49,845 nucleotides of DNA from Kiritimatiellales bacterium (GTDB taxonomy: Bacteria; Patescibacteriota; Gracilibacteria; Peribacterales; Peribacteraceae). Within the stretch, counting starts at the first letter, position 1; every line of letters starts with the position of its first letter. The stretch is taken from positions 1 to 49,845 of the forward strand of contig JAIPIN010000002.1 in the NCBI GenBank assembly GCA_021734665.1, given 5' to 3'. The notes beneath the pieces were generated by a model. That model ran no database searches and was not told the DNA's origin. It saw nothing but the letters and a program-made list of their open reading frames with translations. The translations under genes and the position numbers were made by a program. Below, piece after piece: positions 10,409 through 49,646 of the stretch.

Positions 10409-10525
10409 GTTGACTAGTTAGATTGTTAAGTTTATTAAGTTGATTATGTTGATTAAGTTCATTAGGTTGTTTTGTATTAAGCAAAGAACCTAATAAACGT
10501 AATAAACCTAAAAAACCTAACGAAC
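10409..10525. terminator. long imperfect hairpin between convergent genes, word-repeat family A
   Basis: The left arm has (g)ttgatta/gttaag words and the right arm has aacctaataaacgtaataaacctaaaaaacctaacgaacc. It shares 9-12-nt blocks with 1078-1180. Confidence 0.4.
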
Positions 10526-11035
10526 CTACAATGTAGCCAATGTCCTCCCAAACTCTTCCGCCGCATCCGGCCCATTTGCCGTAACAATTTTTCCATCAAC
10601 CGTAACACTATCTCCTGTGTATTGTGCTTCGTATTTCTCTAGTTCAGACTGTTGCTGACCATCACTGTCCCACACCGTGGCCTGTTTGCCGGATAGAACA
10701 CGTGCCTTTGCAAGTATGATTGGAGCAATGCAAATGGCACCCAAAGGCTTATTTAAACGTGCTGCTTCGTGTGCAATTCTAAGTGCTTCGCCATCATCAA
10801 AGAACTGCGAAGCCCCAGGACCACCTATAAATGCCAAACAATCGTATTCATCTACCTGCACATCCTTTAAAGCTTTCGCAGCTTCTTCGGACCCACCTAG
10901 TTTGCCTGCACATGAGCCTATTTCGGAGCTTCCTAAAATAACTTCGAACCCTGCGGCAATCAGAGCATCTCTTGTTCCATTTAATTCAATATCTTGGAAT
11001 CCTTCTTTAGCAATAATAAGGAGTGCTTTATTCAT
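10526..11035 (-). CDS. DJ-1/PfpI family protein
   Basis: 169 aa with YDCLAFIGGPG and the nucleophile-elbow-like LGAICIAPIILA, typical of the family. Confidence 0.85.
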   Translation of the reverse strand: MNKALLIIAKEGFQDIELNGTRDALIAAGFEVILGSSEIGSCAGKLGGSEEAAKALKDVQVDEYDCLAFIGGPGASQFFDDGEALRIAHEAARLNKPLGAICIAPIILAKARVLSGKQATVWDSDGQQQSELEKYEAQYTGDSVTVDGKIVTANGPDAAEEFGRTLATL

Positions 11036-20340: not shown

Positions 20341-20363
20341 TGGATAAGCTTGGAGGTTCCTGC

Positions 20364-20447
20364 AGACTGCTTATTCATCGGATGAAGGCAGTCTTGAACA
20401 TAAGCGAGTCTTCGCGACGCCACACTTGGCTTGCGAAGGCTTCTCGC
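20364..20447 (-). promoter_or_regulatory. GC-rich two-hairpin leader upstream of rplC (GCGAAG family, copy iii)
   Basis: Hairpin A is AGACTGC...GCAGTCT (20364-20394), with an inner TCATC/GATGA pairing. Hairpin B is GCGAG.TCTTCGC...GCGAAGGCTTCTCGC (20404-20447). The element lies 24-107 nt upstream of the rplC start. Confidence 0.4.
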
Positions 20448-20474
20448 ATCAACAAAGCAACTGTACCTGCATTT

Positions 20475-21317
20475 TTAAACGCAGGTCAACGATTTTGCCA
20501 GGTTTGTTTGGAGGGCTGCCGAGCCGTGTTTTTTGAACCATGCCTTTTGTGCTTTATTGAGCACCTTTGCATATTCATACAATTCTTGAGCATATGGGAG
20601 TGACATACGAATATAATGCTTCATATCTTCCAATTCTTGCTCTGACATTTCTATATACGAACGAACACTCACATTTTCTCTCCACATATGACTAACAGGT
20701 ACACCCATTAACGTGTAACAAATCGAAAAATCTTCGCTCTGTTCCATGAGACCTACAAACGCACATTCATCTAATACACATTTTGCACTTTGAAAGTGAT
20801 CCCATGTTGGCAAGAACTGCTCTCCTGTATGAAGATCTGTACAATATTCAAGTACATACCCCACATGATTCATATCTTTATATCCTTTTCTATATTCAAA
20901 CCACTGCCTTAACGAACGTATCTCCCCGTTTTCCGAGAACAAGCCCCAGTGTCGTTCGGTGTGATTTTCCTCGTCATACTGTCGTCGGAAAAAATTATAC
21001 AAAGATAAAATGCGGTCAACAGGATCTCTGAGAAATACAACTCTCATCACATCCCTATCTTCAAAAAAATTCTCAATTTCTTCCATATAAACATTATGTC
21101 CAAATACTGCACGCACTCTATTTTGCTCTTCCTGTGTCATATCGCGAAAATGATCTATAGCTTTCACTCCCTCGACTGTATTGTACGCCGAAATAATTTC
21201 TCCTTCTTCGCAATTGCGTACCATGTGATGACAGATTGTGGTACCTCCGGTCTTTGGTATATGGAGAAATGCGAATAGTGGCCTATGTTGCTCTGATGCA
21301 TTATCCATATAATCCAC
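20475..21317 (-). CDS. sulfotransferase (Sulfotransfer_2-like), paralogue of the C-terminal domain of the upstream ABC ATPase
   Basis: 280 aa. The 5'-PSB-like motif is FLHIPKTGGTT and the 3'-PB-like motif is FLRDPVDRILSLYNF. It aligns end to end with aa 270-550 of ORF 21384-23036. Confidence 0.75.
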   Translation of the reverse strand: MDYMDNASEQHRPLFAFLHIPKTGGTTICHHMVRNCEEGEIISAYNTVEGVKAIDHFRDMTQEEQNRVRAVFGHNVYMEEIENFFEDRDVMRVVFLRDPVDRILSLYNFFRRQYDEENHTERHWGLFSENGEIRSLRQWFEYRKGYKDMNHVGYVLEYCTDLHTGEQFLPTWDHFQSAKCVLDECAFVGLMEQSEDFSICYTLMGVPVSHMWRENVSVRSYIEMSEQELEDMKHYIRMSLPYAQELYEYAKVLNKAQKAWFKKHGSAALQTNLAKSLTCV

Positions 21318-21383: not shown

Positions 21384-23036
21384 TCACGAAACAGGTTGTA
21401 CGGATTTTATATGTACAGAGCTTGCCACTCCTGCATTGCTCACATCTTTTTGACAATGAAGAAATTGTTCTTTTTGTTTTATTATCTTATTAAGCTCTTT
21501 TGCATATTCATACAACTCCCAATCGTAAGGCAAAACAGAGCGAGCATACGTTTTTAACTCGTCCATGGTCCTAAATCCGGACTCTTCAAGTGTAATATAC
21601 GATCGTGGTGTTACATTGATCTTATACGGATGCCCCTGTTTGATACCAAGCAATGAATACAGAATATCGTAATCTTCGCTCTGCTCTGTAATACCCACAA
21701 ACGAAAATTGCCTTAGAATCGCTTTGAGTGACTCAAAATGTTGCGCAGTAATGCCACCCTTTGCAGGAACGGAAATATAAAACCAGCGCAAAAAGAATCC
21801 GACGGGACTAAGAATATGATTAGGGTTTGTTTCGGTGTCTAACCATTCACGAAATAATCTCACACTCCCATCACTACGAAAGAGATTGGTATAAATACCT
21901 GGCTGACCAGTGCGATCATATTCACTACGATGATAATTGTATTTCGAAATAAGACGCTCGGCAGGATCTCTCAAAAATGTAACATATCGCAATGCTCTCT
22001 CGGGGAAACACTTTGCAACCAATTCGGAACGAAGATCGTGCGAAAATAATACCTGTACCTTTTTACAATCTTTCCAAGACAGCGCGGCAAATTTTTCCTG
22101 CGCTTTCGGATCACTTTCAGATGTGCGATAGTACGACCATACCGTATCTTTCGGCAGACTATTAACAACATGTTCTCTAATTGTAAGTCCTCCAGTTTTT
22201 GGAACATGCACAAAAACCGTAAGCGGCTTACCATGCCAAACACCTCGTATATGCACAGAAGGATGAATCGGCACATTGTGCTTCACAGCAATGCTAAATG
22301 CCTTGCTGCTATACTCCTCATATGCCATGAGTACCTCTGCAGACGCACCATACATCTGCACTTTTCCCTTATCAATCCAAAGCACTTTATCAGCAAATTC
22401 TTGCATAAATTCCGAACTGTGCCCTGTCATAACCACAGTTGCCTCGCTACTTACAAGTTCCGCCATACGATTACGACTTTTATTTCTGAATTGCAAATCA
22501 CCAGTTGCAAACACCTCATCCAATAAGAGAATTTCCGGCTCCAAATGTGCCGCAATAGCAAAAGCTAATCGAGCAGTCATACCACTGGAAAACTTATACC
22601 AATGCACATCCACAAAATCTTCCAATTCAGAAAACGCCACAATTGAATCAAATTTTTCCGATATAGCCTCCCGTGACAACCCAAGCAAAGAACCTATTAA
22701 ATAAATGTTATCGCGCATCGTTAGCTTTGGCTCCGCACCAACAGCAGTACTAATCAGTGGCACTAAATTACCATGTGTACATACATCTCCACTGGTAGGA
22801 GGATATATGCCAGCCAACAGCCTCAGAAGAGTAGTTTTCCCAGATCCGTTGCGACCAATAATTCCAAGTACCTCTCCTTGCCGCAAGGTAAGAGATACAT
22901 TATCTAGTGCTCTGATCTTGCGCGGCATACTCGATCCTTTTACTGCTCCAACCACTTTTGCCAAAATTGTCCCCTCCTCTTGTAAGATGAAATCCTTAGT
23001 AAGATTGCGTGCCAAAATTGAAATATTCAACGTCAT
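21384..23036 (-). CDS. polysaccharide/teichoic-acid type ABC transporter ATP-binding protein (Wzt/TagH-like) fused to a C-terminal sulfotransferase domain
   Basis: 550 aa with Walker A GRNGSGKTT, signature FSSGMTARLAFA, Walker B ILLLDE and H-loop TGHS. VFVHVPKTGGLT and FLRDPAERLISKYNY follow. It overlaps the ABC-2 permease gene by 4 nt. Confidence 0.85.
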   Translation of the reverse strand: MTLNISILARNLTKDFILQEEGTILAKVVGAVKGSSMPRKIRALDNVSLTLRQGEVLGIIGRNGSGKTTLLRLLAGIYPPTSGDVCTHGNLVPLISTAVGAEPKLTMRDNIYLIGSLLGLSREAISEKFDSIVAFSELEDFVDVHWYKFSSGMTARLAFAIAAHLEPEILLLDEVFATGDLQFRNKSRNRMAELVSSEATVVMTGHSSEFMQEFADKVLWIDKGKVQMYGASAEVLMAYEEYSSKAFSIAVKHNVPIHPSVHIRGVWHGKPLTVFVHVPKTGGLTIREHVVNSLPKDTVWSYYRTSESDPKAQEKFAALSWKDCKKVQVLFSHDLRSELVAKCFPERALRYVTFLRDPAERLISKYNYHRSEYDRTGQPGIYTNLFRSDGSVRLFREWLDTETNPNHILSPVGFFLRWFYISVPAKGGITAQHFESLKAILRQFSFVGITEQSEDYDILYSLLGIKQGHPYKINVTPRSYITLEESGFRTMDELKTYARSVLPYDWELYEYAKELNKIIKQKEQFLHCQKDVSNAGVASSVHIKSVQPVS

Positions 23037-26402: not shown

Positions 26403-28205
26403 ATGCTACGATACAAAGTGATGATCAAAAAAGACAATCAAAGCGCCCAAACAATCAAAAATTCTTTGAGTGTACTACATGGTGAATGTTTGTTTACAAG
26501 TGAAAATCAGACAAGACAATTGGAAGATAAAATCGCTTCGAGTGAAGCAAAACTACAACAAGAAATCACAAAGAACAAACTATACGAAGCACGACTTCAG
26601 GAGCTTGAGGCAAAACGTAAGAATCACGAAGAGCGCATACAAGAACAAGAAGCAAAACTCGCAGAAACAAAACAAGATTTGATACAAGTAATTTCTACGC
26701 GCAGTTGGCAATGGACAAAATGTCTACGTGCAGCAGAAGCATGGATAAGGAGAAAAAAGAATATACCCGATACTCAACCACCACACTCTCCACAATCCAA
26801 ATCTACAATAGATGTTGCAGTAATTATAACCTCTCACAATTACGGAAAATTTTTGGTAAACGCAATCGACAGTATCCTTCGCCAATCATGCAAGCCTGCA
26901 GAAATTCTAGTAATGGACGATGCGTCAACAGATAACACATCGGATATTGTACAGCGATACATTAATCATGGAATACGATACGTACGTTGTAAGCACCTGC
27001 ATCCTTCACCAACGCGGAATGAAGGAGCTAGTCTGACACGTGCACCATTTTTGGTATTCCTAGATGCCGATGACATATTGCAAGAAGACTTTTTAGAAAA
27101 GTGCTATGCCCAGATGAAAGATCCATCAGTCGCAATTACATATGGAGATATGCAATACTTTGGGCTTGAGAATCACTTATTCAAGGCACCAGAATTTGAC
27201 CGCGAAAGATTGATGCGCACGAACTACATGTCATCACACTCAATGATCAGAAGACAGGCATTTGATATTACAGGTGGGTATCGCCGCTATAGTTTTCCGG
27301 CAGAAGATTGGGATTTGTATCGTAGAATTCTGCAATATAAATGGACTGCCAAAAAAGCACAGACAAAAGTTCTATACCGAATCCATGGAACCAATCGCCT
27401 ACCTAAATGCAAAGATGATGAATACTGGAAAATAATTAATTTGCTTCAAAATCCTATTACTATCTTCACACCATTTGCTGGAAGACACGATGTATTTGAG
27501 CGCTACATAGAAGGACTCAAGAATATTGAATTCGACCATAAACTTATTCGTCTGCATTGGCTGGATACAAGTGGCGATGAAAAATTTGGACGTATGTTGC
27601 GCGAGACCATGAGCACACTGGATTTTGGACGGACAACTTACACGTGCTCTCCTCTTCCTTCAATCTGGAACCACACGCCTCAAACACTAATAGAAAACCG
27701 GTTCAGTGATCCAAAAGCCGGACAATACTATGACATGGCACTAGCCTATGCATACAATCATTTATTGCACACATGCGACACAGAATTTGCACTGACAGTA
27801 GAAGACGATATAGTTTTGAAACCCGATACAATTACCAGATTACTAAAAACAGTACAACATCACGACGTGACTGCTGTTATCGCTCCCTACCCATGCCAAA
27901 TACAAGGTTATCAAACAGTATGGATACAAGATAAAAACAACAATCCACAATTTATTACCAAAGCTCAAAAGGGAATATGGGAAGTTGGCGGTGGTGGATT
28001 CGGATGTACATTGATCCGCATGGATGTATTCAAACACACCCCGATCTATAGCAATGTACACCTACAAAAAAATCCACAATGGTATGACCACGTAGCCTTT
28101 GCACTGCTACGCAGGAAAGGCAAGGTACTCTGTAATTGGGATGCGTCCGTAGAGCACTTGGAAACAGATCGACACATTCCAGCAGGATACACCACTAAAA
28201 CATGA
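26403..28205 (+). CDS. coiled-coil / GT2 glycosyltransferase / second GT-A-like domain protein
   Basis: 600 aa. The helical N-terminus (KLQQEITKNKLYEARLQELEAKRKNHEERIQEQEAKLAETKQDL) ends in STRSWQWTKCLR. GT2 features are VAVIITSHNYGKFLVNAIDSILRQ..ILVMDDASTDNT and FLDADD. The second domain carries LTVEDDIV. Confidence 0.8.
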   Translation: MLRYKVMIKKDNQSAQTIKNSLSVLHGECLFTSENQTRQLEDKIASSEAKLQQEITKNKLYEARLQELEAKRKNHEERIQEQEAKLAETKQDLIQVISTRSWQWTKCLRAAEAWIRRKKNIPDTQPPHSPQSKSTIDVAVIITSHNYGKFLVNAIDSILRQSCKPAEILVMDDASTDNTSDIVQRYINHGIRYVRCKHLHPSPTRNEGASLTRAPFLVFLDADDILQEDFLEKCYAQMKDPSVAITYGDMQYFGLENHLFKAPEFDRERLMRTNYMSSHSMIRRQAFDITGGYRRYSFPAEDWDLYRRILQYKWTAKKAQTKVLYRIHGTNRLPKCKDDEYWKIINLLQNPITIFTPFAGRHDVFERYIEGLKNIEFDHKLIRLHWLDTSGDEKFGRMLRETMSTLDFGRTTYTCSPLPSIWNHTPQTLIENRFSDPKAGQYYDMALAYAYNHLLHTCDTEFALTVEDDIVLKPDTITRLLKTVQHHDVTAVIAPYPCQIQGYQTVWIQDKNNNPQFITKAQKGIWEVGGGGFGCTLIRMDVFKHTPIYSNVHLQKNPQWYDHVAFALLRRKGKVLCNWDASVEHLETDRHIPAGYTTKT

Positions 28206-32849: not shown

Positions 32850-33596
32850 TTGGAATCTGTAAATCAACAAAGGCTAGCCATCTTAACTATTGATGATTCT
32901 CCATCAGTAGACTTACAAATCAGACTTAAGCATCTTAAAGAAAGATCTCTAACTGCTATTTTATTTTGCAGAGGCGATTATCTAGAAAAAAGACCAGAAC
33001 TGGCGTTACAAGCTATTCATGAAAAACACATAATTGGGAATCATGCATTTAGTCATACACCATTTTCAAATTTAACACTTGCAGAAGGGGAAAAAGAAAT
33101 ATCAAAAACCGAACAAATAATAGATAGAATCTACGAACAATCTGATATAAGACGTCCTGCCAAAGTATTTCGCTTTCCTTATGGCGACAAAGGTAACAGA
33201 GATCCCACTCACTCCACCAGAGCAGAAGATTTACAGAAAATACTAAAAGAATTTGGATTCTCACCACCAAAACTTCCAAATCTTACAAACTCTCACTATC
33301 AATCAATAAATGCTCACAAAGACCTAGATTGGTTTTGGACATTTGATGCGATGGAATATGGCATATATAGAGAATGGGCAAAAGATCTACACACAATTGA
33401 TGATGTATATAACCGTATGAACACAGATAGCCCGGATAAAGGAATTGAGATCAATAATGGCACTTCGGATGAAATTATCTTAATACACGACCACAGTGAA
33501 ACCACTGACGTTTTCCCAGATATTTTGGACAGACTTTTGCAAAAGAACTGTAAATTTGTGTCCCCAGAAGGCCATATTGATATTTTTATACAATGA
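32850..33596 (+). CDS. polysaccharide deacetylase (NodB homology / CE4), no signal peptide
   Basis: 248 aa with LTIDDSPS (motif 1), IGNHAFSH (motif 2), FRFPYGDKG (motif 3) and ILIHDH. The ORF opens with TTG. Confidence 0.8.
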   Translation: MESVNQQRLAILTIDDSPSVDLQIRLKHLKERSLTAILFCRGDYLEKRPELALQAIHEKHIIGNHAFSHTPFSNLTLAEGEKEISKTEQIIDRIYEQSDIRRPAKVFRFPYGDKGNRDPTHSTRAEDLQKILKEFGFSPPKLPNLTNSHYQSINAHKDLDWFWTFDAMEYGIYREWAKDLHTIDDVYNRMNTDSPDKGIEINNGTSDEIILIHDHSETTDVFPDILDRLLQKNCKFVSPEGHIDIFIQ

Positions 33597-33680
33597 AGAA
33601 GGTTTCTATCTTCAGGAACAGAACTAATCTATTCCAGTTGGAGAAAATGTCCTAATTGGCTATAGTTACGAGCCTTTATC

Positions 33681-36600
33681 ATGGAAGTTTTCTGGCAACC
33701 AATCATCAGGCCGATCTTTGATATCCTATTGCCAAAGTCTGTTGTAGAAATTGGTATCGATAAAGGTGACAACACAAAACATTTGCTCGAATACTGCAAA
33801 AAACATAATGGATTCTTGCACGGCATTGACCCCGAACGAAATGAGATTACCTCTGCATTAGAAGCAGAATACTCACACTTTTTTAAATTTTATGAGGACC
33901 TAAGCCTAAATACACTGCCAAAACTCGAATCATATGATGCAATTTTAATCGACGGTGATCACAATTGGTACACCGTATATCACGAACTGATCCTAATTGA
34001 GAAATGTGCACAGAAACAAGGCACGTTCCCAATGGTATTTATTCACGATGTTGGGTGGCCATACGGCAAACGTGATATGTATTTCAATGCAGAAATTATC
34101 CCAGAAAAATACCGCCAAATGCACAAGAAAGGAGGGTTGCAAATAGACAATGGCATCCCACAGGATAATAACGGATTCAATGCACACTTTGACCATGCAT
34201 TGTATGAGCATGGCATTCAAAATGGAGTGCTATCCGCAATGGAAGACTTTTTGAAACAAACAGAATTTAATCTTACAAGTACTGTTATTCTTGGTTTTCA
34301 TGGATTAGGAATTTTGTGTGATAAAAAAATATTGGATTCTAATTCCCAACTTAAAAAATTACTTAATGGTCTGGATTGCCCACAAGAACTTAAATCCGCA
34401 ACTATTGCCGTTGAGCAAGATCGCATAAAACAGATCATATATAATAATGAATTGTTGCAAACATGTTCTCATACAAGAAGACAGCTTGAAAACGAACAGA
34501 GGGAGAAGCAGGAAAGAGAACTCATGGAGAAACAAGAACAAGAACTGAGGGAGAAACAAGAACAAGAACTGAGGGAGAAGCAGGAAAGAGAACTCAGGGA
34601 GAAACAAGAACAAGAACTGAGGGAGAAGCAGGAAAGAGAACTCAGGGAGAAACAAGAACAAGAACTGAGGGAGAAGCAGGAAAGAGAACTCAGGGAGAAA
34701 CAAGAACAAGAACTGAGGGCGAAACAAGAACAAGAACTGAGGGAGAAGCAGGAAAGAGAACTCAGGGAGAAACTCGAAAGAGAACTTAAAGACAAAGAAG
34801 CCCAACAAGTACTATGGACTGGTGAACGAAAACAGATACTTAAAAATCTAGATCAAATTAAAATGGAGAATTCCGCCAATAAAGAACGATTAATACAAAG
34901 AAAAAGGCTAATGGAAGAAAATAGGACTATGTATATAAGACAAATTACTAATCTAGAAATTAATAATAAAAACAAGCTCGAAGAAGAGCGTTCTAAGAAT
35001 CAAAATCACACAACCGAGTTGGAAGAAATTATTACACAAGAAGTTCAAAAAAATGCGATTCTTAGCCGAGACATACAACACATTCTTAAGAGTAAGAGCT
35101 GGCGTTGGACACATTTCTTACGTGTGTTAGATAAAATTCTTAAATGGCCTAGAACAAAAAAGCCTTTATATTGGCTTTGTGCCAATTTAAAAGATATTTG
35201 GACAGATTTCGATGAGCCATTTCCAAAACTCGTTCGTTTTATCCGACACAATATACTGGGCTGCTGGCTTCCATCTGATACACAAAATGCAGTACAGCCA
35301 ATTCAGGGGGATGCAATCTTCTACAATGATAAATATCTATCAACTCTAAATACACTTAAACAGAAAGATCTTCAGCAGAGCAATGAAGCAGTTAATAACA
35401 TGCATTGGCTGCCATCAATACACATTGTAATATTTGTAGAACTGCTTGATGAAATTAGATTGCGCAAAACACTTAACTCTATTGTGGAACAAACCTACTA
35501 CAACTGGAATATAACAGTGCTAGATGCTTCTAAGAGCTACACAAGCGTACAAAGCATTGTAAAAGATTACTCCATACACTATCCAGAAAAAATCAAGTAC
35601 ATAAGACAGCATGCCAATCAGAACCCACACATAGAAGCCATAGAAAACAACAAAAGTACATATGTATCATTTATGGATAGTACAAATACCCTACAGCATG
35701 ACGCACTTGAACGCTTGTTCACTGCAGCCATTGAAGAGGCAAATCTGCCCGATCTTATTTATAGTGATCATGATGAATTACACTGCTCGAACGCATCGGA
35801 ATACACACCTGTATTCAAACCCGGATGGAGCCCAGAATTGCTTCTGTCATATAATTACATAGGAGCATTTTTTCTCATAAAACACTCCATGCTTCTAAAA
35901 TGCATAGATAATACAAATATTCAAGAACAAGAAACCTTTGCATATGATCTTCTTCTAAGAATTGCAGAACATGATCCTGCTGCAATACATATACCACAAG
36001 TGCTCTGGCGCCAGAGCAAATCATTTGTAATTACTTCTCAGAGAATAGAAGCGCATCGCTCAACCCTACAAAAAGCATTGGCCAGAAGAGGCCTAAAACA
36101 CAGAATAGAATATGGTGAGTACGCACAAAAACACAATGAAATATTTTTCTCAATTAAATCCAACTTCAGCGCTAAAGAGGAGCCAACCGTTACAATAATA
36201 ATCCCAACAAAGGATCGCGCTGAAATGCTAAAAAATTGTATTAACTCAATAACAAAAAAAACCGACTACAAACGATATAAAATCTTAATTGTTGATAATG
36301 GAAGCGAGGAATTGGCAACAAAGAATTATCTACAATCACTTACACACACTGTGCTAAAATTAGAAACTAAACAATTTAACTTTGCATATATTAATAACCG
36401 AGCTGTTCAAAACACGGACACAGAACTGTTGCTTTTCCTTAATAATGACACAGAAATCCTTAATGAAGGGTGGTTACGAGAAATGGTCGGCACAATGTCA
36501 CTCGATAAGAATATTGGCGCAGTAGGCTCTAAGTTACTCTATCCAGAAGGAGCATTCCCGTACCGCGTACAAAGCGCAGGAGCGATATTAGGTAGGCATT

Positions 36601-37079
36601 GGTCAAGTCTAGTAAAATTTAAAACTGAAGAAGAATTGGGTTATGGCTTTTATAACCACGTCATGCGCAATTGCGCCATAGTAAGTGGATCGTGCATGCT
36701 CACAAAACGAAATCTATTTGCAAAGGTTGGAGGATTCGACACAGAGAAATTTGGCATTGATTTTAATGATGTAGATTATTGTTTGAAGCTTATGCAAGAA
36801 GGATATCGCACTGTTTGGACACCACATGCTCGGATACTCCATCATCTATCCGCTAGCCGTGGTAGTAACAACGGGCTTGGCGCAAACGTAGTTACAAAAG
36901 AATCAAAAGCATTCGAAAGAAAATGGGGATGGCTATTCGGACACGATCCGTATTACAACTGTAATTTTTCATTAGATATTCAAGATGATGCGTTTACACC
37001 ACGAACACGCTCTTCTTTTCGATCACCATACACACAATCACATTCTCGCAACACTTCGTCGACAATAAACTCAATTTGA
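33681..37079 (+). CDS. multidomain protein: class I SAM methyltransferase (Methyltransf_24-like), long ER/K-rich helix plus coiled coil, and two GT2 domains
   Basis: 1132 aa. The methyltransferase part has VVEIGIDKGDNTKHLLEY...ILIDGDHNWYTVYHEL. The repeat is (EKQE[RQ]ELR)x12 and the linker motif is SKSWRWTHFLR. GT2-1 has IHIVIFVELLD...SFMDS. GT2-2 has VTIIIPTKDRAEMLKNCINS..ILIVDNGS..FLNNDTE. Confidence 0.85.
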   Translation: MEVFWQPIIRPIFDILLPKSVVEIGIDKGDNTKHLLEYCKKHNGFLHGIDPERNEITSALEAEYSHFFKFYEDLSLNTLPKLESYDAILIDGDHNWYTVYHELILIEKCAQKQGTFPMVFIHDVGWPYGKRDMYFNAEIIPEKYRQMHKKGGLQIDNGIPQDNNGFNAHFDHALYEHGIQNGVLSAMEDFLKQTEFNLTSTVILGFHGLGILCDKKILDSNSQLKKLLNGLDCPQELKSATIAVEQDRIKQIIYNNELLQTCSHTRRQLENEQREKQERELMEKQEQELREKQEQELREKQERELREKQEQELREKQERELREKQEQELREKQERELREKQEQELRAKQEQELREKQERELREKLERELKDKEAQQVLWTGERKQILKNLDQIKMENSANKERLIQRKRLMEENRTMYIRQITNLEINNKNKLEEERSKNQNHTTELEEIITQEVQKNAILSRDIQHILKSKSWRWTHFLRVLDKILKWPRTKKPLYWLCANLKDIWTDFDEPFPKLVRFIRHNILGCWLPSDTQNAVQPIQGDAIFYNDKYLSTLNTLKQKDLQQSNEAVNNMHWLPSIHIVIFVELLDEIRLRKTLNSIVEQTYYNWNITVLDASKSYTSVQSIVKDYSIHYPEKIKYIRQHANQNPHIEAIENNKSTYVSFMDSTNTLQHDALERLFTAAIEEANLPDLIYSDHDELHCSNASEYTPVFKPGWSPELLLSYNYIGAFFLIKHSMLLKCIDNTNIQEQETFAYDLLLRIAEHDPAAIHIPQVLWRQSKSFVITSQRIEAHRSTLQKALARRGLKHRIEYGEYAQKHNEIFFSIKSNFSAKEEPTVTIIIPTKDRAEMLKNCINSITKKTDYKRYKILIVDNGSEELATKNYLQSLTHTVLKLETKQFNFAYINNRAVQNTDTELLLFLNNDTEILNEGWLREMVGTMSLDKNIGAVGSKLLYPEGAFPYRVQSAGAILGRHWSSLVKFKTEEELGYGFYNHVMRNCAIVSGSCMLTKRNLFAKVGGFDTEKFGIDFNDVDYCLKLMQEGYRTVWTPHARILHHLSASRGSNNGLGANVVTKESKAFERKWGWLFGHDPYYNCNFSLDIQDDAFTPRTRSSFRSPYTQSHSRNTSSTINSI
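34503..34790 (+). repeat. in-frame tandem repeat of 12 x 24 nt (alternating A/B units giving a 48-nt period), encoding EKQERELR/EKQEQELR
   Basis: Counted unit by unit. Three consecutive 48-nt super-units are identical. Unit types differ at synonymous sites as well (aag/aaa, cag/caa, ctc/ctg). Confidence 0.95.
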
Positions 37080-38191
37080 GATGCTACATCACAAATATTA
37101 TAAAGACGAGGAATAACATCTTGCCCACTAGATACCAACCTCTTACCTTCTTCTGGATTCAATACAATATTAGCAACCGCCTTGGCAAAAAGCTCTGGTT
37201 TGGGCATGTCAACAAGATGAACAAATCCCTCATCCCCAAATTCTTTAGGACCACCAGCACTTTCACATACAACAACTGGCTTACCCATGAGAGTGAGCTC
37301 TAAACAAACAAGACTCAACGACTCTGTGCGTGATGTCACAGTACAAATATCAAATAACGAATAATACGGACGCGGATCATTGTGTCCTCCTACAAAATGC
37401 ACACGATCAGACAGGCCAAGATGCCTAGCTTCACTATGCATTAGATAATCGTACACAGCGTCACACGGAGAAGGCTCACCCACCCAAACAAAATGACAAT
37501 TGTGCTCAGGAAGCAAATCACACAAATAACTAGCCATCTGCAACCATAGATCAACTCCTTTAAGCGGAATGCGTTGACCGGATGCACCAATTACTAACGC
37601 ATCTGTAGGAATATTAAGCCGAGCAAGAAGATTCATATCTTTAATGATAGGCTTCCATTTATTTGTATCTATTCCAGAAGAGACTATAGAAACCTTATTA
37701 GAATCGATCCCAAGATCATCTGTAAGCATTTTCTTAACATATCGTGACGCCGCTATATACCGCACAGGATAATTGCAAAACAGAGATAGTAAATCTTTAT
37801 CAAGTTGCATAAATGAAGCTGGCACTTCGTGAATATGACATATCACAGGCACACCATACAAAGCTGCTAAGTAAATAAATTCGAATGAATGTGAATTTAG
37901 ATAGTAAAGATCTGGCTGATTTTTATGTGTGTATTTAAGAACAAGACCTTGGATATATGATTTTTTATTAATATTTTGGTACGCCAAACGTGTGGTATGC
38001 AATTCATTCTGCCCCACTACACTTACAGGGTAAAGATCTGCAAACTCGCTCATAAGAGGGCCTTCTCTAAGCAGTATCACATTTGATTTCCATGACGGAT
38101 TTTTAATATGCTCCAATATATGCAAAAGCGCCAAAGGAGCGCCTGTTCGGCATGCAGAATGGCTAACAAAAGATACTGCTTTCTGTGGCAT
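36980..38191 (-). CDS. GT4 family (GT-B) glycosyltransferase
   Basis: Homology starts near MPQKAVSFVSHSACRTGAPLALLHILEHI. GGHNDPRPYYSLFDICTVTSRTESLSLVCLELTLMGKPVVVCE is present. The start was trimmed from 38227 to the Met at 38191. Confidence 0.8.
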   Translation of the reverse strand: MPQKAVSFVSHSACRTGAPLALLHILEHIKNPSWKSNVILLREGPLMSEFADLYPVSVVGQNELHTTRLAYQNINKKSYIQGLVLKYTHKNQPDLYYLNSHSFEFIYLAALYGVPVICHIHEVPASFMQLDKDLLSLFCNYPVRYIAASRYVKKMLTDDLGIDSNKVSIVSSGIDTNKWKPIIKDMNLLARLNIPTDALVIGASGQRIPLKGVDLWLQMASYLCDLLPEHNCHFVWVGEPSPCDAVYDYLMHSEARHLGLSDRVHFVGGHNDPRPYYSLFDICTVTSRTESLSLVCLELTLMGKPVVVCESAGGPKEFGDEGFVHLVDMPKPELFAKAVANIVLNPEEGKRLVSSGQDVIPRLYNICDVASQIEFIVDEVLRECDCVYGDRKEERVRGVNASS

Positions 38192-38257
38192 AATATGATT
38201 ACATCCTACATACGCCATCGTGTACAATCAACAACCTTACATCGATCACATAACACA

Positions 38258-39391
38258 ATGAGAATCCTCTTCTGTAGCCATAATAGTCAATTACAAGGCG
38301 CTCCACTCAATATTCTGAGATGTGCACGCCTACTAAAAGAGCGTGGAATTCAATGTGTTATTAGTTCACCAGAAGATGGTCCTATCCGAGAAATGTCGGA
38401 TGAGCACTGTATAACATTTGATATACAGCCGAATCTCTTCCATCCAAAATACTCGAAAGAATGTTTGATGGATATTATCAAACGACATAAGCCAGATATT
38501 ATCTTTATAAACACAATACTTGGTGCCGCAATTGTAAAAAACACCAAAGCTTTATTTCCACATCTACCAATCATATGGAACATACGCGAATCCGAACGTG
38601 AGAATTTTATGAATGCGTATGACTACATAACACCAAAGTCTTTTGAATTAGCAGATGCAATTATTTTTGTATCAGAAAAAACAAAACAAGCTTACCAAGA
38701 TTTGGACAGCGGCAATATGCATGTAATCCATAATGGAATTGATGTAGAAAAAATTGCAAGATCTATTGATCCTAAACAAAAAAATACTCTTAAGGAGAAA
38801 ATGGGCATTCCTAGAAATGCTACAACCGTTGTACTTGTTGGATCGATCTGTCCTCGCAAAGGACAAAGTGAATTTATCTCTTCTGGAATACGCGTTGCGC
38901 ACCGCATTGGGAATAAGCACCCTGTGCGCTTTGTTATTGTAGGTAAATTACACACTAATTTTAGAAAATATTTAGAGCTCTCTCTAAAACGAGCGGAGGA
39001 AGAAGGATATCGTGACAATTTCATCTTATTGCCAGAACAACAGGATATGACAAACATCTATCAAATGTCCGATATTCTGGTATCCAATTCCTTTATTGAA
39101 TCATTCCCTATGGTGACATTAGAGGCAATGGCATGGGGAATACCGATTATTGCTAGTAATGTATATGGAGTTAGCGAACAAATACAAAACAATATAAATG
39201 GGCTTCTATTCTTGCCAGGCCATGTGAGCATGCTTGCAGAAAAACTTGAATATCTGATTTTACACCCAGATATTGCGCAATCTCTTGGAGAAGAAGCCCA
39301 GAGAAATGTCCGCGAAAAATTTACAGAAGATAATATGATCACTAAGTACATTTGGCATCTAAATAACCTTATAGAACAAAAAGTGAGCTAA
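38258..39391 (+). CDS. GT4 family (GT-B) glycosyltransferase
   Basis: Starts MRILFCSHNSQLQGAPLNIL, and the C-terminal half has SNSFIESFPMVTLEAMAWGIPIIASNVYGVSEQI. The tracked ORF start (38108) would overlap the divergent gene and was rejected. Confidence 0.85.
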   Translation: MRILFCSHNSQLQGAPLNILRCARLLKERGIQCVISSPEDGPIREMSDEHCITFDIQPNLFHPKYSKECLMDIIKRHKPDIIFINTILGAAIVKNTKALFPHLPIIWNIRESERENFMNAYDYITPKSFELADAIIFVSEKTKQAYQDLDSGNMHVIHNGIDVEKIARSIDPKQKNTLKEKMGIPRNATTVVLVGSICPRKGQSEFISSGIRVAHRIGNKHPVRFVIVGKLHTNFRKYLELSLKRAEEEGYRDNFILLPEQQDMTNIYQMSDILVSNSFIESFPMVTLEAMAWGIPIIASNVYGVSEQIQNNINGLLFLPGHVSMLAEKLEYLILHPDIAQSLGEEAQRNVREKFTEDNMITKYIWHLNNLIEQKVS

Positions 39392-39412
39392 TCTTTTTTG
39401 TTCACAGTCTGC

Positions 39413-40813
39413 CTATATAATAATTTCCTCTTCTCTCTCGGGCATAAAAATTTCCACCCCATTCTTTGATTTCTTAATACGATCTGCAAAAGGTTGCATG
39501 CTTTCCATTTCTCCATGCACTAAAATTATTTTCTTTATTCCCTCCGTATCAGAAACAAAATTATCTAGATCATTCATATCCGCGTGACCCGAATATGCGT
39601 TGATATATACCACTTCTGCACGCTTTTGGTACATCTCATCAAAAATTTTAACTTCTGTAATTTCTGGATCCACAATCCTACGACCGAGTGTATTGTTGGC
39701 CATATAACCAACTGCAAGAATTGTATTACGCTCATCTTCGATCTCGTTACGTAAATGATGACGAATCCGACCCGCTTCACACATTCCTGATCCAGCCATA
39801 ATAATAATAGGACCTGGTGTTCCATTTAATGCTTTGCTCTCTTCCACCGACGCCGTGTACTTAACCAGAGAAAACTGAAAAGGATTATGTGCTTTAGATA
39901 AGAATTGTTCATACATATCTTTGTCATAACATTCTGGGTGCTGCATAAAAACATCTGTTACCTTGGTAGCAAGTGGAGAATCTACAAAGATAGAAATTCC
40001 TGGGATCTCTTTTTTGTCCCACAAAACGTGCAGATCGTAGATAATCTCCTGAGTGCGCTCCAAAGAAAAGGCAGGGATTAGTACTTTTCCTCCTCTCTTT
40101 GCCGTGTTAACTACAACCTCTTTTAAATGATCTACAGCTGTAGAAATATCTTCATGTAAACGATTACCATATGTACTCTCGCAAATAAGAATATCTACTG
40201 GCGGCATAGGGGATGGATCTCTGATAATCGGGAGCATATTTCGACCCAAATCCCCAGTGAAACCAACGTACTTAGTCTCTCCATTCTCTGTTACTTCCAA
40301 AATAACCATTGCCGCTCCAATAATATGCCCCGCCTCAATAAATTTTGCCTTTACTCCTTCACATACATCAAACCAGTTTTCGTAATTCTCACCCTGAAAT
40401 ACTTCCATACAATCAATCGCATCCTGCTGCGTATATAAAGGGCCCTTACAATCCATTTTTGATTTTGCCAAATGCTTACAAAAGTACTCTTCGTCTTTCT
40501 CATGTATATACCCACTATCCATCAACATAACCTCTACTAAATCCTTTGTGGCATATGTGCAATGAACATTTTTGCGAAATCCATTCTTATATAGAAGTGG
40601 AATACGCCCCGAATGATCCATGTGTGCATGCGAAAGAACAACAGCATCAATATCTTTTGCAGGATCAAATGTAAATTCTGCATTCTTTACCGCGGCTTCG
40701 CTTCTTTTACCTTGAAAAAGGCCGCAATCTAACAAAATACGCTTAGACCCAACTTGAACTTCGTGGCATGTTCCTGTTACCTCTCGAGCCGCACCATGTG
40801 GAATAATTTTCAT
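39413..40813 (-). CDS. MBL-fold beta-CASP ribonuclease (CPSF/RNase J-related)
   Basis: 466 aa with HGAAREVTGTCH and the HxHxDH motif VLSHAHMDHSGRIP. Length and C-terminal SGHAD fit beta-CASP. Confidence 0.85.
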   Translation of the reverse strand: MKIIPHGAAREVTGTCHEVQVGSKRILLDCGLFQGKRSEAAVKNAEFTFDPAKDIDAVVLSHAHMDHSGRIPLLYKNGFRKNVHCTYATKDLVEVMLMDSGYIHEKDEEYFCKHLAKSKMDCKGPLYTQQDAIDCMEVFQGENYENWFDVCEGVKAKFIEAGHIIGAAMVILEVTENGETKYVGFTGDLGRNMLPIIRDPSPMPPVDILICESTYGNRLHEDISTAVDHLKEVVVNTAKRGGKVLIPAFSLERTQEIIYDLHVLWDKKEIPGISIFVDSPLATKVTDVFMQHPECYDKDMYEQFLSKAHNPFQFSLVKYTASVEESKALNGTPGPIIIMAGSGMCEAGRIRHHLRNEIEDERNTILAVGYMANNTLGRRIVDPEITEVKIFDEMYQKRAEVVYINAYSGHADMNDLDNFVSDTEGIKKIILVHGEMESMQPFADRIKKSKNGVEIFMPEREEEIII

Positions 40814-40908
40814 AAAAAGTTAATAGGAAATATATTATGCAATAGATCCCTCGTAGCCCCGAAGGGCGAAGTGGGATCGAGCCGCACCATGTGGAATAAT
40901 TTTCATAA
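40784..40908. repeat. 32-nt direct repeat (40784-40815 and 40877-40908) duplicating the 5' end of the beta-CASP gene, flanking a 61-nt insert with a GC-rich palindrome (40845-40878, GCGAAG family copy iv)
   Basis: tcgagccgcaccatgtggaataattttcataa occurs twice with an offset of 93 nt. The palindrome is GATCCC-TCGTAGCCCCGAAGGGCGAAGT-GGGATC. Confidence 0.9.
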
Positions 40909-40965
40909 GTGCAATCAGGATAGCACACAACAACTAAGTGCCACATAGCTCAAAACAAAGTATGG

Positions 40966-43593
40966 CTATCGAATTCCAACCAATTCAGAATATGATGATT
41001 CTTTACTTTCTATAATCGGAGATATAGCACCATTGGCAATTTTAGCCACATTCTTACCCGGAAAAGCTAGTAATCGAACTCCATTTAATTTCATTCTTTT
41101 CCAAAGCAATTTATCCTCATCATTAAGAGATACCTCCATAAATAATCGCCCAGATTCCACAATAGAACGATGTATAAGAGTAGCTTCTAATGGTATATCT
41201 AAAATATCTATTTCATTGCTTGATTTGTAAATTAACTTACTTTCACTATTTTCTATAGCATAATCACCATAAGCAATTGCGCATTGCTGATGCTTCATCT
41301 TAGGTAAAAGCCAACGAATTCGTTCTGGATCAAGCAGGCTAGATGCATTTAAGAAACAAAGTACGGGATACATATTAGCCAAATCACTATTAATATTAAG
41401 ACCCGCATTTTTTACAGTTGACTGCAAAGCATTCTTTGAACATTTTTTTGTACCACACCAATCTGCTGTACTTTCCGACAAATCAATTTGCATATTCGAT
41501 TCCAGATTATCACTCCATGTTACAATCCAGCTGAAACCATCTAATGCAGTATTAAGATTATCTATAAGCCCTATCGGTTGAACATCATTAGTTGCCCAAA
41601 GTACAACATGTATTCCTGGTAGCGGAATCCAATCCTCACCTCCGCCCCAAGAATGAACATACGGATACTTGCGACGCCATATAAGTATATTATGCTGATG
41701 TAATAAAGACTTAAAATGTGCCTTTTCATGACCAAATGATGCATGATTTTCATGAAGAACCTCAACATCATCAAGTCGTCCCCAAAATGCTCCTCTCTGT
41801 AAAGCACGATAAGACAAATCTGCTTCTTCTAATCCATATTTAGAAAATGCCTCATCTAACGGGCCTATACGATCAAGCCATTCACTATCCCAAATAACAC
41901 ATGTTGCAGGAACCGGAGAAGTTAAATATGTAAATTCATCCACGCGTGGTTTGCCCAATACAACGTTGTCTTTGTTTTTCTGAACAAGCCATGGCCCAAT
42001 ACATGACAAACGTTTTTCTTCTATAAAATATATCATTCTCCTAATCATTACAGGAGTCTGCAATATACAATCATCATTCAAAAACAATACATACTGTTCA
42101 TTTTTACGCTGTTCAAGTCCCCTATTAATAGAACGAGAAAAATTAAACGGACCAGGAAGATAAATAACCTGTGCATTGTGTTCTTTCGCAAGTAATTCGA
42201 TGTCTTCATTAGAACATTCATCTTCTGGACAAACAACAATAGTAATTGCAATACGAACGCCTTCGGCATTATCAAATACAGATTTTAAGCAACGTCGAAG
42301 CATTGGGCAATCTTGCCCATTAGTTGGTATAACTACTTGCACACTCCTATCTTTTTTTAAAGGAGAAGCAATATATGGATGATGCCATATATATTTAACT
42401 ATATCTGATGGTAGTTTCTTTTGTTCTTGCTTCACAGATTTTGCGATTTCATTTTTAGTTTTCTCTCTGTCACTTTTAGCCTTTTTACTGTCTCCAAAAA
42501 CATTAAGGAAAATACGCTTTTTTGTGCGCTTAATTAAAACATCTGCAAAACGAAGCCAAGATGTAAAACGCCAACTCTTTGAACGATGTATACGTTCAAG
42601 ATCTGCTTCTAGCCGTGCACAATGATCAAGTAACGATGGATCATTATATTCCGCATTTTTGGCAGACGATCTTTCGGATGCCAATTCCTGTGCAATTTTT
42701 TCCATCGTATCAAGAGCATTAAACAAAAGACTACTGCGCTCCTCTTCTCTTTTTGTATCAGCAGAATACTTGAGCGCAGGTGCCTGAAGCGGATCTAATA
42801 CAATAGAAAATTGATTCTGTTGCTCTGGAGTTGATCCGTAGGTTTGTGCAATATCGCATAATTCTTCCTGCGACAATGGATCCCCTGTTTTTAGTCGTTC
42901 AAAAAGCTCACGCCAATGCCACGCATCCTTATTTAATCCACGCACCAAGTTGCGCGGCCAGGACAATAGATTTTTTTTAGTTAACTGATTAATACTGCGC
43001 ACGGGAAAATGTGCAATTGCAAGATTATGTGCAATATCCAATGGATAGTGATAATGCTGCTTTAGCAACAGATTATGATTACCTTGAGATATAGCGATAT
43101 CTTCACGAGATGCAATTTTTGAAGACACAACTAATTTTGTAAGACAAGAATGAGGATCTGATAATCGGTGTTGTATGCGCCTAAGAATATTCACTTCACT
43201 AAGATCATCATTTGCAGTTGGTATGTAATTGTACCAAGGAAGTCGATATGAACTATCACCTTTTAATTGAGCAATTTCATCACTAACATCACCTTTCTTG
43301 CTGAACAGAAATTCATCCCCATCCAAAGGAACAATCCATTTAATATCTTGTCGCTTAGCAACCTCCTCCATGCATTCTGTGATCAATTCTGATTGTTTTT
43401 GGGCAATACCAGAAAAATTACATATATGGATTGGAAGGCCTTCCTTCTTCAATTTTTCTAATATGGCTTTTGTTTCATCATCACTATCATGATCAATGAT
43501 ATACATTTCATCCAAAATTCCCACATGATATCGCACAAAGGACTCTATTATGTCTTCCTCGTTACGAACCATGCTAATGGATACAATGCTCAT
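40966..43593 (-). CDS. three-module glycosyltransferase: N-terminal GT2-like (Glyco_tranf_2_4-type), helical linker, central GT2, C-terminal GT-A-like region
   Basis: 875 aa. The N-terminus is MSIVSISMVRNEEDIIESFVRYH..YIIDHDSDDET..PLDGDEF. The linker ends in RSKSWRFTSWLR. The central module has VQVVIPTNGQDCPMLRRCLKS..FLNDDC. Confidence 0.8.
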   Translation of the reverse strand: MSIVSISMVRNEEDIIESFVRYHVGILDEMYIIDHDSDDETKAILEKLKKEGLPIHICNFSGIAQKQSELITECMEEVAKRQDIKWIVPLDGDEFLFSKKGDVSDEIAQLKGDSSYRLPWYNYIPTANDDLSEVNILRRIQHRLSDPHSCLTKLVVSSKIASREDIAISQGNHNLLLKQHYHYPLDIAHNLAIAHFPVRSINQLTKKNLLSWPRNLVRGLNKDAWHWRELFERLKTGDPLSQEELCDIAQTYGSTPEQQNQFSIVLDPLQAPALKYSADTKREEERSSLLFNALDTMEKIAQELASERSSAKNAEYNDPSLLDHCARLEADLERIHRSKSWRFTSWLRFADVLIKRTKKRIFLNVFGDSKKAKSDREKTKNEIAKSVKQEQKKLPSDIVKYIWHHPYIASPLKKDRSVQVVIPTNGQDCPMLRRCLKSVFDNAEGVRIAITIVVCPEDECSNEDIELLAKEHNAQVIYLPGPFNFSRSINRGLEQRKNEQYVLFLNDDCILQTPVMIRRMIYFIEEKRLSCIGPWLVQKNKDNVVLGKPRVDEFTYLTSPVPATCVIWDSEWLDRIGPLDEAFSKYGLEEADLSYRALQRGAFWGRLDDVEVLHENHASFGHEKAHFKSLLHQHNILIWRRKYPYVHSWGGGEDWIPLPGIHVVLWATNDVQPIGLIDNLNTALDGFSWIVTWSDNLESNMQIDLSESTADWCGTKKCSKNALQSTVKNAGLNINSDLANMYPVLCFLNASSLLDPERIRWLLPKMKHQQCAIAYGDYAIENSESKLIYKSSNEIDILDIPLEATLIHRSIVESGRLFMEVSLNDEDKLLWKRMKLNGVRLLAFPGKNVAKIANGAISPIIESKESSYSELVGIR

Positions 43594-48819: not shown

Positions 48820-48905
48820 GTATTGAGTATTAAGTATCTAGTATTTAGGGTCATTAAAGACAAATTGCCTAAATACGGAATACTAGATACTAAATACTAA
48901 TATTG
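48820..48905. other. hairpin/word-repeat spacer (family B) overlapping the stop of the SLH gene
   Basis: gtattgagtattaagtatctagtatttaggg faces cctaaatacggaatactagatactaaatac. It shares word blocks with 8539-8624. Confidence 0.4.
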
Positions 48906-49646
48906 AGCCACCTGATCCTGCCTAGTCTGTAACTTGATCTTCTCATATAAAACCTTGGAAACTTCTGCTCTATTGATTCTATCATCAGGGCGGAATGTTC
49001 CTAACTCTGCTCCAATATCGTTTGTATCTCCGTTTACCACTCCAAATAGAGCTGCAAAAGCAACATCTGCTTCGTATGGATGTCCAGAGACATCACGGAA
49101 AGTTGTAAACAGAGGAAGAACATCGTCACCAAATACATCATGCATAATCACAAGTACTTCCGCACGACTAACAGGCTGATCTAATTTTGAAACAGGAGCA
49201 TCTCGTATAATTCGGACTCCTCTCTTGCGTGCGCACTGAACATAAGCATTTGCCCAATGACCAATATCTTCGCCTGCGCTACAAGTTGCTTTGTTTATAT
49301 GCGCAGCTTCCGATGTCATCTTTAATATTTCTGCCATTGTTACAGAATTGCCTGGCCTAAATTCTCCAGTAGGATTGCCTCCACTATCGCTATAACCAGA
49401 AACAATTCCCCACTCAGAAAGTGAAGCTACATAAGAATTAAACCAATCATCTTCTTTAATGTCTCTAAAAACTGTACCAGTCATATCGTCTAACTGAGCT
49501 AATATTTCTGAGAAATCTGCGGCATGCGTAGTCTCCCAAAGCATAAGCTCTTGCTTGAGCTGAACAACTTCATCTAAAAATGCTTTTGCAACACCTGCTG
49601 TTACAAAGAGGGTAATCATCACTATTGGTATTAGTCGTTTAAACAT
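48897..49646 (-). CDS. secreted SLH (S-layer homology) domain protein
   Basis: 249 aa with signal peptide MFKRLIPIVMITLFVTAGVAKA and three SLH-like units. Unit 1 is FRDIKEDDWFNSYVASLSEWGIVSGY..VTMAEILKM, unit 2 is HWANAYV..VSRAEVLVIM, and unit 3 is FRDVSGHPYEADVAFAALFGVVNGD..INRAEVSKVLY. Confidence 0.8.
   Translation of the reverse strand: MFKRLIPIVMITLFVTAGVAKAFLDEVVQLKQELMLWETTHAADFSEILAQLDDMTGTVFRDIKEDDWFNSYVASLSEWGIVSGYSDSGGNPTGEFRPGNSVTMAEILKMTSEAAHINKATCSAGEDIGHWANAYVQCARKRGVRIIRDAPVSKLDQPVSRAEVLVIMHDVFGDDVLPLFTTFRDVSGHPYEADVAFAALFGVVNGDTNDIGAELGTFRPDDRINRAEVSKVLYEKIKLQTRQDQVAQY

Follow-up and report, generated by a model that had tools for sequence, protein, structure and literature searches.

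What is a sulfotransferase doing at the end of an exporter ATPase? The question is raised by a gene for a 550-aa protein in a contig of a patescibacterial genome that GenBank lists as Kiritimatiellales bacterium (assembly GCA_021734665.1, contig JAIPIN010000002.1, positions 1 to 49,845). In this text, we use the term window to refer to this whole stretch of 49,845 nt. The N-terminal part of the protein is a Wzt/TagH-type ATP-binding cassette (ABC) ATPase, and the C-terminal part is a Sulfotransfer_2 domain of the heparan sulfate 2-O/6-O-sulfotransferase family. In ABC-transporter-dependent glycan assembly, chain length and export are coupled via a terminal cap, which is read by a non-catalytic domain of Wzt. 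The fusion described here is real, rare, recurrent and so far undescribed, its component families being well known, and it probably ties chain sulfation to chain export.

A short first-pass annotation, made from the sequence alone, had proposed that a sulfotransferase stands at the usual position of the Wzt carbohydrate-binding domain, and had suggested a Pfam scan, a structural model and a Foldseek search as checks. In the Pfam scan, Sulfotransfer_2 (PF03567) scores 21.4 bits with the whole protein, for which the cut-off is 22, and 23.4 bits with residues 263-550 alone. A profile search with the C-terminal domain returns 499 homologues, and most among the matches listed are annotated with PF03567. 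In an alignment of 84 sequences of the family, K18, G21 and R94 (domain numbering) are invariant, and H15, P17, G20, H71, P96, R99 and S102 are conserved in at least 90%. When the profile of this alignment is compared with solved structures, it matches heparan sulfate 6-O-sulfotransferase (HS6ST) with an E-value of 3.5e-32 and heparan sulfate 2-O-sulfotransferase (HS2ST) with 2.5e-18. The motifs fall into register: PKTGGT is aligned with QKTGGT in HS6ST and PKTAST in HS2ST, GH with GH in both enzymes, and RDPveRvlS with RDPVSRYLS and RDPIERLVS, respectively.

The annotation had also pointed to two motifs from about residue 270 that resemble binding sites for 3'-phosphoadenosine 5'-phosphosulfate (PAPS), HVPKTGGLT and FLRDPAERLISKY; both are present, and both align with motifs of HS2ST and HS6ST. 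Within and between them, K280 (of PKTGG), H333, R356 and S364 align with the lysine of the 5'-phosphosulfate-binding (5'-PSB) loop, the catalytic histidine, and the arginine and serine of the 3'-phosphate-binding (3'-PB) site of the two enzymes. We take the HS2ST residues at these motif positions to be K83, H140/142, R164 and S172. The four counterparts are invariant or nearly so in the 84 homologues and in all fused copies, and are kept in the paralogues as well. With its PAPS-binding and catalytic residues in place, the C-terminal domain looks catalytically intact. Characterised Sulfotransfer_2 members use PAPS as the sulfate donor.

The AlphaFold model of the domain, based on the same 84 sequences, has a mean predicted local distance difference test (pLDDT) score of 84.9 and a predicted template modelling (pTM) score of 0.84, and has a sulfotransferase fold. 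The best 50 Foldseek matches in the PDB are all sulfotransferases. First among them, with TM-scores of 0.50-0.56, are HS6ST (E 3e-7) and HS2ST (TM-score 0.56). Family profiles, PDB sequence matches and the fold search thus agree on the proposed sulfotransferase. The annotation had named, as the contrary outcome, a non-catalytic fold with motifs that do not superpose on PAPS-binding loops; what we find is PKTGG and RDPxxRxxS aligned with their equivalents in HS2ST and HS6ST. The fusion protein has no membrane segment (the maximum Kyte-Doolittle mean over 19 residues is 1.23 for the whole chain), so that the sulfotransferase domain is predicted to lie in the cytoplasm, where it would have access to PAPS and to the polyprenol-linked glycan.

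The nucleotide-binding domain is complete, and contains each of the motifs that had been claimed for residues 1-250: Walker A GRNGSGKTT (aa 61-69), the signature SSGM within FSSGM (aa 149-153), Walker B ILLLDE (aa 169-174) and the H-loop TGHS (aa 204-207). Pfam ABC_tran (cut-off 25) gives it 81.8 bits. In NCBIfam, it matches galactan Wzt/RfbE best (190 bits), followed by TagH (150-154 bits), and these scores are under the equivalog cut-offs; we therefore place the ATPase in the wider Wzt/TagH group and do not regard it as the orthologue of any named transporter. NodI models match at a lower 77-87 bits. Its best PDB sequence matches are mycobacterial RfbE/Wzt (E 9e-46), TarH (3e-42), TagH (6e-42) and Aquifex Wzt (3e-41). 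Among 5.8 billion proteins searched, the nearest relatives of the ATPase outside its own lineage are Wzt proteins of about 400 aa with 45-51% identity, and many of these are annotated with the carbohydrate-binding domain Wzt_C (PF14524). The Pfam scan gives no match to PF14524 in the 550-aa protein at E <= 0.1. Since the closest outside relatives often have Wzt_C, this fits a binding domain that has been replaced. Three other proteins, P0002, P0003 and P0004 (519-526 aa), are the best non-self matches to the full-length query and resembled further fusions by length and score; they were rejected, as they are Wzt-like tandem proteins with two ATPase domains per chain.

The positions of the genes and domains are collected in Table 1. 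The stop codon of wzm overlaps the start of the fusion gene by 4 nt (ATGA in the junction sequence), and Wzm scores 49.3 bits with the NCBIfam galactan Wzm/RfbD model, which is under the equivalog cut-off. On the other side, the fusion gene is followed after 66 nt by the gene of a second Sulfotransfer_2 protein, and this in turn after 134 nt by rplC. A scan for promoters and terminators gave nothing over background on the gene strand, which leaves the operon limits undefined.

Table 1. Positions of the exporter, sulfotransferase and neighbouring genes in the window, with the domains and motifs of the fusion protein.
Feature	Position	Strand	Remarks
wzm, ABC-2 type permease, 249 aa	23033..23782	-	Pfam ABC2_membrane 37.7 bits
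wzt-sulfotransferase fusion gene, 550 aa, one uninterrupted open reading frame (ORF)	21384..23036	-	
Wzt/TagH-type nucleotide-binding domain, aa 1-250	22287..23036	-	Walker A, signature, Walker B, H-loop
Linker, aa ~247-268, without hydrophobic segment	22233..22298	-	
Sulfotransfer_2 domain, aa 269-527	21456..22232	-	
5'-PSB loop HVPKTGGLT, fusion protein aa 277-285	22182-22208	-	
Catalytic His in FSHD, fusion protein	22035-22046	-	
3'-PB FLRDPAERLISKY, fusion protein aa 354-366	21939-21977	-	
NVTPRSY, fusion protein	21597-21620	-	
C-terminal tail of fusion protein, aa 528-550	21387..21455	-	Alignment
Free-standing Sulfotransfer_2 paralogue (280 aa with GTG start, 277 aa with ATG start at 21308)	20475..21317	-	
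Third sulfotransferase, 259 aa	25582..26361	+	Sulfotransfer_3 44 bits, Sulfotransfer_1 36 bits; directly after the class-I lysyl-tRNA synthetase (LysRS) gene
Glycosyltransferases (GT): GT2 600 aa, GT4 406 aa, GT2 266 aa	26403..30333	+	Pfam
600-aa GT2	26403-28205	+	Heptad-like, coiled-coil-like N-terminus (aa ~30-100), judged by eye
Polysaccharide deacetylase, 1132-aa methyltransferase+GT2, two GT4, 875-aa double GT2	32850..43593		
1132-aa Methyltransf_24+GT2 protein	33681-37079	+	
1408-aa protein, 14 DUF4215 repeats	44518-48744	-	255 bits
SLH-domain protein	48897-49646	-	Adjoins the DUF4215 protein

The gene downstream of the fusion had been read as a free-standing paralogue of the C-terminal domain, and its protein is 36% identical to the C-terminal 283 aa of the fusion over 252 aa (E 1e-54) and scores 36.4 bits with Sulfotransfer_2. 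The orthologues of the paralogue (P0240) are P0121 and P0123. The two genes also share an identical block of 17 nt, which had been noticed in the first pass and is exact at both sites (20566-20582 and 21499-21515). Zero such blocks are expected in shuffled DNA. The block encodes LYEYAK, which is common to both proteins, and when synonymous codons are placed at random on the amino-acid alignment identical stretches of 17 nt or more appear in 4.6% of simulations. We considered gene conversion as the origin of the block, and rejected it because the block lies within the shared ELYEYAK motif and the simulation gives P = 0.046. The identity therefore follows from the conservation of the motif, and tells us no more than the protein similarity does.

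The same fusion is present in a syntenic relative. GCA_018814875.1 (L004/L005) is an independently assembled metagenome-assembled genome (MAG) of marine origin, named "Patescibacteria group bacterium", and its gene order is that of the window: a class-I LysRS gene on the divergent strand, and then wzm, a fusion gene, a free sulfotransferase gene and rplC. The L004 fusion is a single ORF of 538 aa; it shares 52% identity with the window protein along 514 aa, unbroken across the junction, and a one-ORF orthologue in an independently assembled relative establishes that the fusion is real and not an assembly artefact. In GenBank it is named merely "ATP-binding cassette domain-containing protein" (MBU0766562.1). 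Identity between the two loci is 90% for rplC, 83% for LysRS, 68.5% for the ATPase domain, 67% for Wzm, 48.6% for the free sulfotransferase and 41% for the fused one. The sulfotransferase units thus diverge far faster than the exporter, yet every catalytic residue is kept. The adjacency of wzm and wzt is conserved in loci L001-L004 and L011.

More distant examples fall into two types. In P0005 (530 aa), which is present on three separate contigs, the ATPase is fused from about residue 260 to a different C-terminus, and an ABC-2 permease gene adjoins. Its lineage is related to that of the window (LysRS 77%, Wzm 56% and ATPase 54% identical). The P0005 C-terminus scores 23.3 bits with Pfam Sulfotransfer_1 (cut-off 22), and a weak hhalign match (E 0.0018) lines up its AKSGTT and IIRDPRDMLIS with the motifs of Sulfotransfer_2; its GDWKNWFT motif presumably resembles that of cytosolic sulfotransferases. 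A single-sequence search of the PDB with this C-terminus gave no match, and it has no similarity to the third sulfotransferase of the window. It is probably a Sulfotransfer_1-type domain, an assignment less firm than that made for the window protein.

The second type is P0303 (747 aa, L011 8001-10244), in which the ATPase is followed by two Sulfotransfer_2 domains (aa 290-510 and 513-737). Its gene also adjoins an ABC-2 permease gene, and its cluster has three members, each from its own contig and its own source. The P0303 ATPase is only 37% identical to that of the window, which is lower than for ordinary Wzt proteins, and its fusion therefore arose independently. The neighbouring genes (DUF4369/AhpC-TSA, DUF5106 and DUF4293) are, we assume, of a Bacteroidota-like kind. 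When 1.84 billion representatives were searched exhaustively with a profile of the sulfotransferase domain, 16,206 matched, and among the best 150 a Wzt-type ATPase domain occurs only in the window protein and P0303. Other long proteins in which the domain starts near residue 300 were considered as ATPase fusions and rejected, being mostly tandem sulfotransferases or sulfotransferase-GT2 fusions. Species-representative genomes and metagenomes, when scanned with sequence patterns, yielded only the L004 genome, the metagenome contig L007 and distant relatives, so that either the lineage is rare there or the patterns were too narrow. Two further combinations were seen on contigs too short or uninformative for context: P0224 (L012 4449-6221, 590 aa) has Sulfotransfer_2 with Wzt_C, and P0213 (L014 621-2636, 671 aa) has Sulfotransfer_2 with a Wzx-type flippase.

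A third arrangement is found on L007, where a Wzt-type ATPase gene is followed by two consecutive genes for Sulfotransfer_2 homologues. Wzt and two Sulfotransfer_2 units are thus combined in three ways: as separate genes (L007), as an ATPase-sulfotransferase fusion with a free sulfotransferase (window and L004) and as one polypeptide (P0303). These three states are the strongest indirect evidence here that the exporter and the sulfotransferases work together, and basically amount to a Rosetta-stone argument for one machine. To judge from the sequences, the fusion appears selected, and its recurrent, independent origin gives indirect support to a physical coupling of sulfation to export.

The surroundings of the window genes are rich in glycan functions. 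The third sulfotransferase is of the Sulfotransfer_3/1 type, so that the locus encodes three sulfotransferase domains of two types; in L001, a 311-aa Sulfotransfer_1/3 gene also lies beside LysRS. The neighbourhood has at least eight glycosyltransferase domains, large multi-domain GT2 proteins included. Multi-domain glycosyltransferases are typical of ABC-transporter-dependent polymer assembly (WbdA, WbbB, WsaE), and the 600-aa GT2 and the 1132-aa protein resemble the multi-domain polymerase/terminator enzymes of these pathways. Homologues of the 1132-aa protein adjoin Sulfotransfer_2 homologues in four distant loci (L006, L008, L009 and L010), and no exporter was seen in the flanks fetched for these loci. 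Among the glycan genes of 32850..43593 there is also an unrelated beta-CASP RNase gene, and the divergent-strand cluster also has a gene for an Lnt-like CN-hydrolase. The DUF4215 and SLH proteins are probably associated with the cell surface or the S-layer, and on this account the product may be a wall- or S-layer-associated glycan of a monoderm-like envelope of the candidate phyla radiation (CPR). Two GT4 ORFs, at 36980-38227 (-) and 38108-39391 (+), overlap by about 120 nt on opposite strands, and the TTG start of the minus-strand ORF was probably called too far upstream.

Several features of the adjoining ribosomal-protein genes were noted in passing. After the free sulfotransferase gene and a gap (20341-20474), rplC opens the ribosomal-protein operon with no rpsJ between, and likewise in L004. 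Between 13467 and 19729 (-), several ribosomal proteins, namely L5 (221 aa), L24 (194 aa), L4 (267 aa), L22 (176 aa) and S17 (127 aa), end in long low-complexity tails rich in Lys, Glu and Ser. At 9227-11035, the stretch from rplO to rpsE is broken up by two other genes, one for a CAP-domain (cysteine-rich secretory) protein and one for DJ-1/PfpI.

We propose that the 550-aa protein serves as the ATPase of an ABC-2 exporter of the Wzm/Wzt type, that this exporter handles a polyprenol-linked glycan of the cell surface in a patescibacterial (CPR) bacterium, and that a cytoplasmic carbohydrate O-sulfotransferase domain has replaced the Wzt carbohydrate-binding domain. The sequences show what both domains are, that their residues are intact, that the gene is linked in an operon to wzm, and that the fusion is conserved and recurrent; activity, acceptor, PAPS supply, timing and any gating of export are inferred. 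The fused domain and the free paralogue most likely sulfate the glycan at the transporter. The glycan would be finished or nearly finished when it reaches the cytoplasmic mouth of the transporter, and sulfation would come late in the pathway, coupled in space to export. The attachment of the domain to the exporter, and not to the polymerising glycosyltransferases, favours such a role at the end of assembly. That the sulfotransferase is catalytically competent and functionally coupled to the exporter seems to us likely. Two forms of the proposal can be distinguished. In one, terminal sulfation would cap the chain and commit it to export, which would merge the roles of WbdD-like terminators and of the Wzt carbohydrate-binding domain; in the other, sulfation would be an in-line decoration that is added while the chain is threaded. 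The stronger claim, that the transporter caps its own cargo, with sulfation of the non-reducing end by the fused domain, aided by the free paralogue, serving as chain terminator and export-commitment signal in one polypeptide, is a possibility that we hold tentatively and with some doubt.

A number of observations weigh against a sulfotransferase that acts in export. The Sulfotransfer_2 score of the whole protein is marginally short of the Pfam cut-off, and most Sulfotransfer_2 homologues elsewhere have no exporter within the flanks fetched. The rapid evolution of the fused sulfotransferase relative to the ATPase could reflect relaxed constraint. The methyltransferase-GT2 protein could be a conventional chain terminator, so that sulfate need not be the cap. 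In Aeromonas salmonicida, the O-antigen has no known sulfate despite an ORF with a sulfotransferase domain after wzt (PMC4483657). Finally, no sat, cysC or PAPS synthase gene lies within the 49.8-kb window; PAPS synthase genes have been reported in groundwater CPR MAGs (PMC12114108).

The fused domain might instead be a catalytically dead sulfotransferase fold, re-used as a recognition module for a sulfated or capped chain end, with the cap made by the free paralogue or the methyltransferase-GT protein and the domain acting like the Wzt carbohydrate-binding domain. Its position is the same as that of the carbohydrate-binding domain in the closest Wzt relatives, a free paralogue is available for the chemistry, and P0224 joins Sulfotransfer_2 and Wzt_C in one protein. 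The fused copy in the window is also the most diverged, being 41% identical to its L004 counterpart where the free copies are 48.6% identical; it has SH in place of GH at the catalytic histidine, and its tail has diverged from the ...LAKSLTFA tail that is conserved in the alignment of the free paralogues and the L004 fusion. Set against this, the 5'-PSB-loop lysine, the catalytic histidine, the 3'-PB arginine and serine, and an NxS/T motif are kept in the window, L004, L007 and both P0303 copies, and there is no sequence mark of a pseudo-enzyme, so that we consider a dead fold unlikely. As for the substrate, the transporter and sulfotransferases might act on a small glycolipid or oligosaccharide and not on a polymer, by analogy with rhizobial NodH and the ABC-2 transporter NodIJ. 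For Nod factors (lipochitooligosaccharides), sulfation by NodH and export by NodIJ of one molecule are established, and the ABC-2 ATPase families overlap, as seen in the NodI scores given above. The best ATPase matches are Wzt/RfbE and TagH rather than NodI, and the glycosyltransferases nearby, with their large multi-domain GT2 proteins, are of the kind typical of polymer assembly; a small substrate would be distinctly improbable.

The first-pass annotation had itself raised the idea that the fusion joins two genes through an assembly or frameshift artefact. On L007, the ATPase gene runs 29 nt (385-413) into the first sulfotransferase gene, which is in a different frame, across A-rich homopolymers, and this junction may be one of genuine overlapping genes or a frameshifted fusion; an overlap of this kind means that split and fused states can both arise by a single indel. 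For the window protein, an artefact is hard to reconcile with the single ORF in an independent NCBI MAG, with P0005 on its three contigs and with a P0303 cluster drawn from distinct contigs and sources, and we regard it as extremely improbable.

Full-text searches of the literature turned up no account of a Wzt or TagH protein fused to a sulfotransferase, in keeping with the first-pass annotation, and the databases hold a few unannotated examples. An exporter that modifies its glycan with an enzyme of its own, as accessory domain, would solve the problem of coupling chain length to export in another way, and the fusion suggests a testable alternative to cap-reading by a carbohydrate-binding domain. 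If the proposal is true in its stronger form, a self-capping transporter replaces the separate terminator enzyme and the cap-reading carbohydrate-binding domain of the classical systems. To our knowledge, CPR envelopes are almost undescribed and sulfated bacterial polysaccharides are uncommon. The locus points to sulfated surface glycans in CPR bacteria, and if the stronger form is correct, Patescibacteria would build sulfated envelope glycans, possibly as phosphate-free anionic wall polymers.

The known systems resemble the window locus in different parts. The Wzm-Wzt O-antigen transporters (E. coli O9a, Klebsiella O12/Raoultella and Aquifex aeolicus, with Wzt_C PF14524; PMC9445017) have the same type of ATPase, as seen in the 45-51% identity to proteins that bear Wzt_C. 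The Aquifex Wzt structures (PDB 8dku and 7k2t) match the window ATPase with E ~1e-40. As in these transporters, the wzm and wzt genes overlap and an extra cytoplasmic domain comes straight after the ATPase domain; unlike in them, the extra domain has a sulfotransferase enzyme fold in place of Wzt_C, and the host is a CPR bacterium. We know of no lipopolysaccharide made by such hosts. The TagGH/TarGH teichoic-acid exporters also have an ATPase and ABC-2 permease of this type (see the TarH and TagH matches above), and export an anionic wall polymer in bacteria that have no outer membrane. They differ in that TagH and TarH have no sulfotransferase, and the TagH scores of the window protein are far under the NCBIfam equivalog cut-offs.

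The heparan sulfate 2-O- and 6-O-sulfotransferases (PDB 3f5f, 4ndz and 5t03) share with the window domain the fold and all of the PAPS-binding and catalytic motifs, and the elements FVGxTE and ELYEYA are common to the window domain family, HS2ST and HS6ST. Identity to them is just ~17-19%, and the window domain is bacterial, predicted to be cytoplasmic, without a Golgi anchor and fused to an ABC ATPase. WbdD, the kinase-methyltransferase terminator of E. coli O9a (PMC3482155), would be comparable if a late anionic group is indeed added to an ABC-pathway glycan in both cases. It has a different fold and donor, and is a partner of the polymerase and not a part of the transporter; a terminating sulfate in the window is our proposal. 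Closer in gene position is ORF19 of the A. salmonicida wbsalmo cluster, a 216-aa protein with a sulfotransferase domain that is encoded right after wzt (PMC4483657). Here the likeness lies in gene position and domain description, and ORF19 is a separate and shorter gene. The nearest parallels are MBU0766562.1, P0005 and P0303, which are all unannotated ATPase-sulfotransferase fusions beside an ABC-2 permease gene, as in the window; P0005 differs by its probable Sulfotransfer_1-type domain, and P0303 by its two Sulfotransfer_2 domains and distant ATPase.

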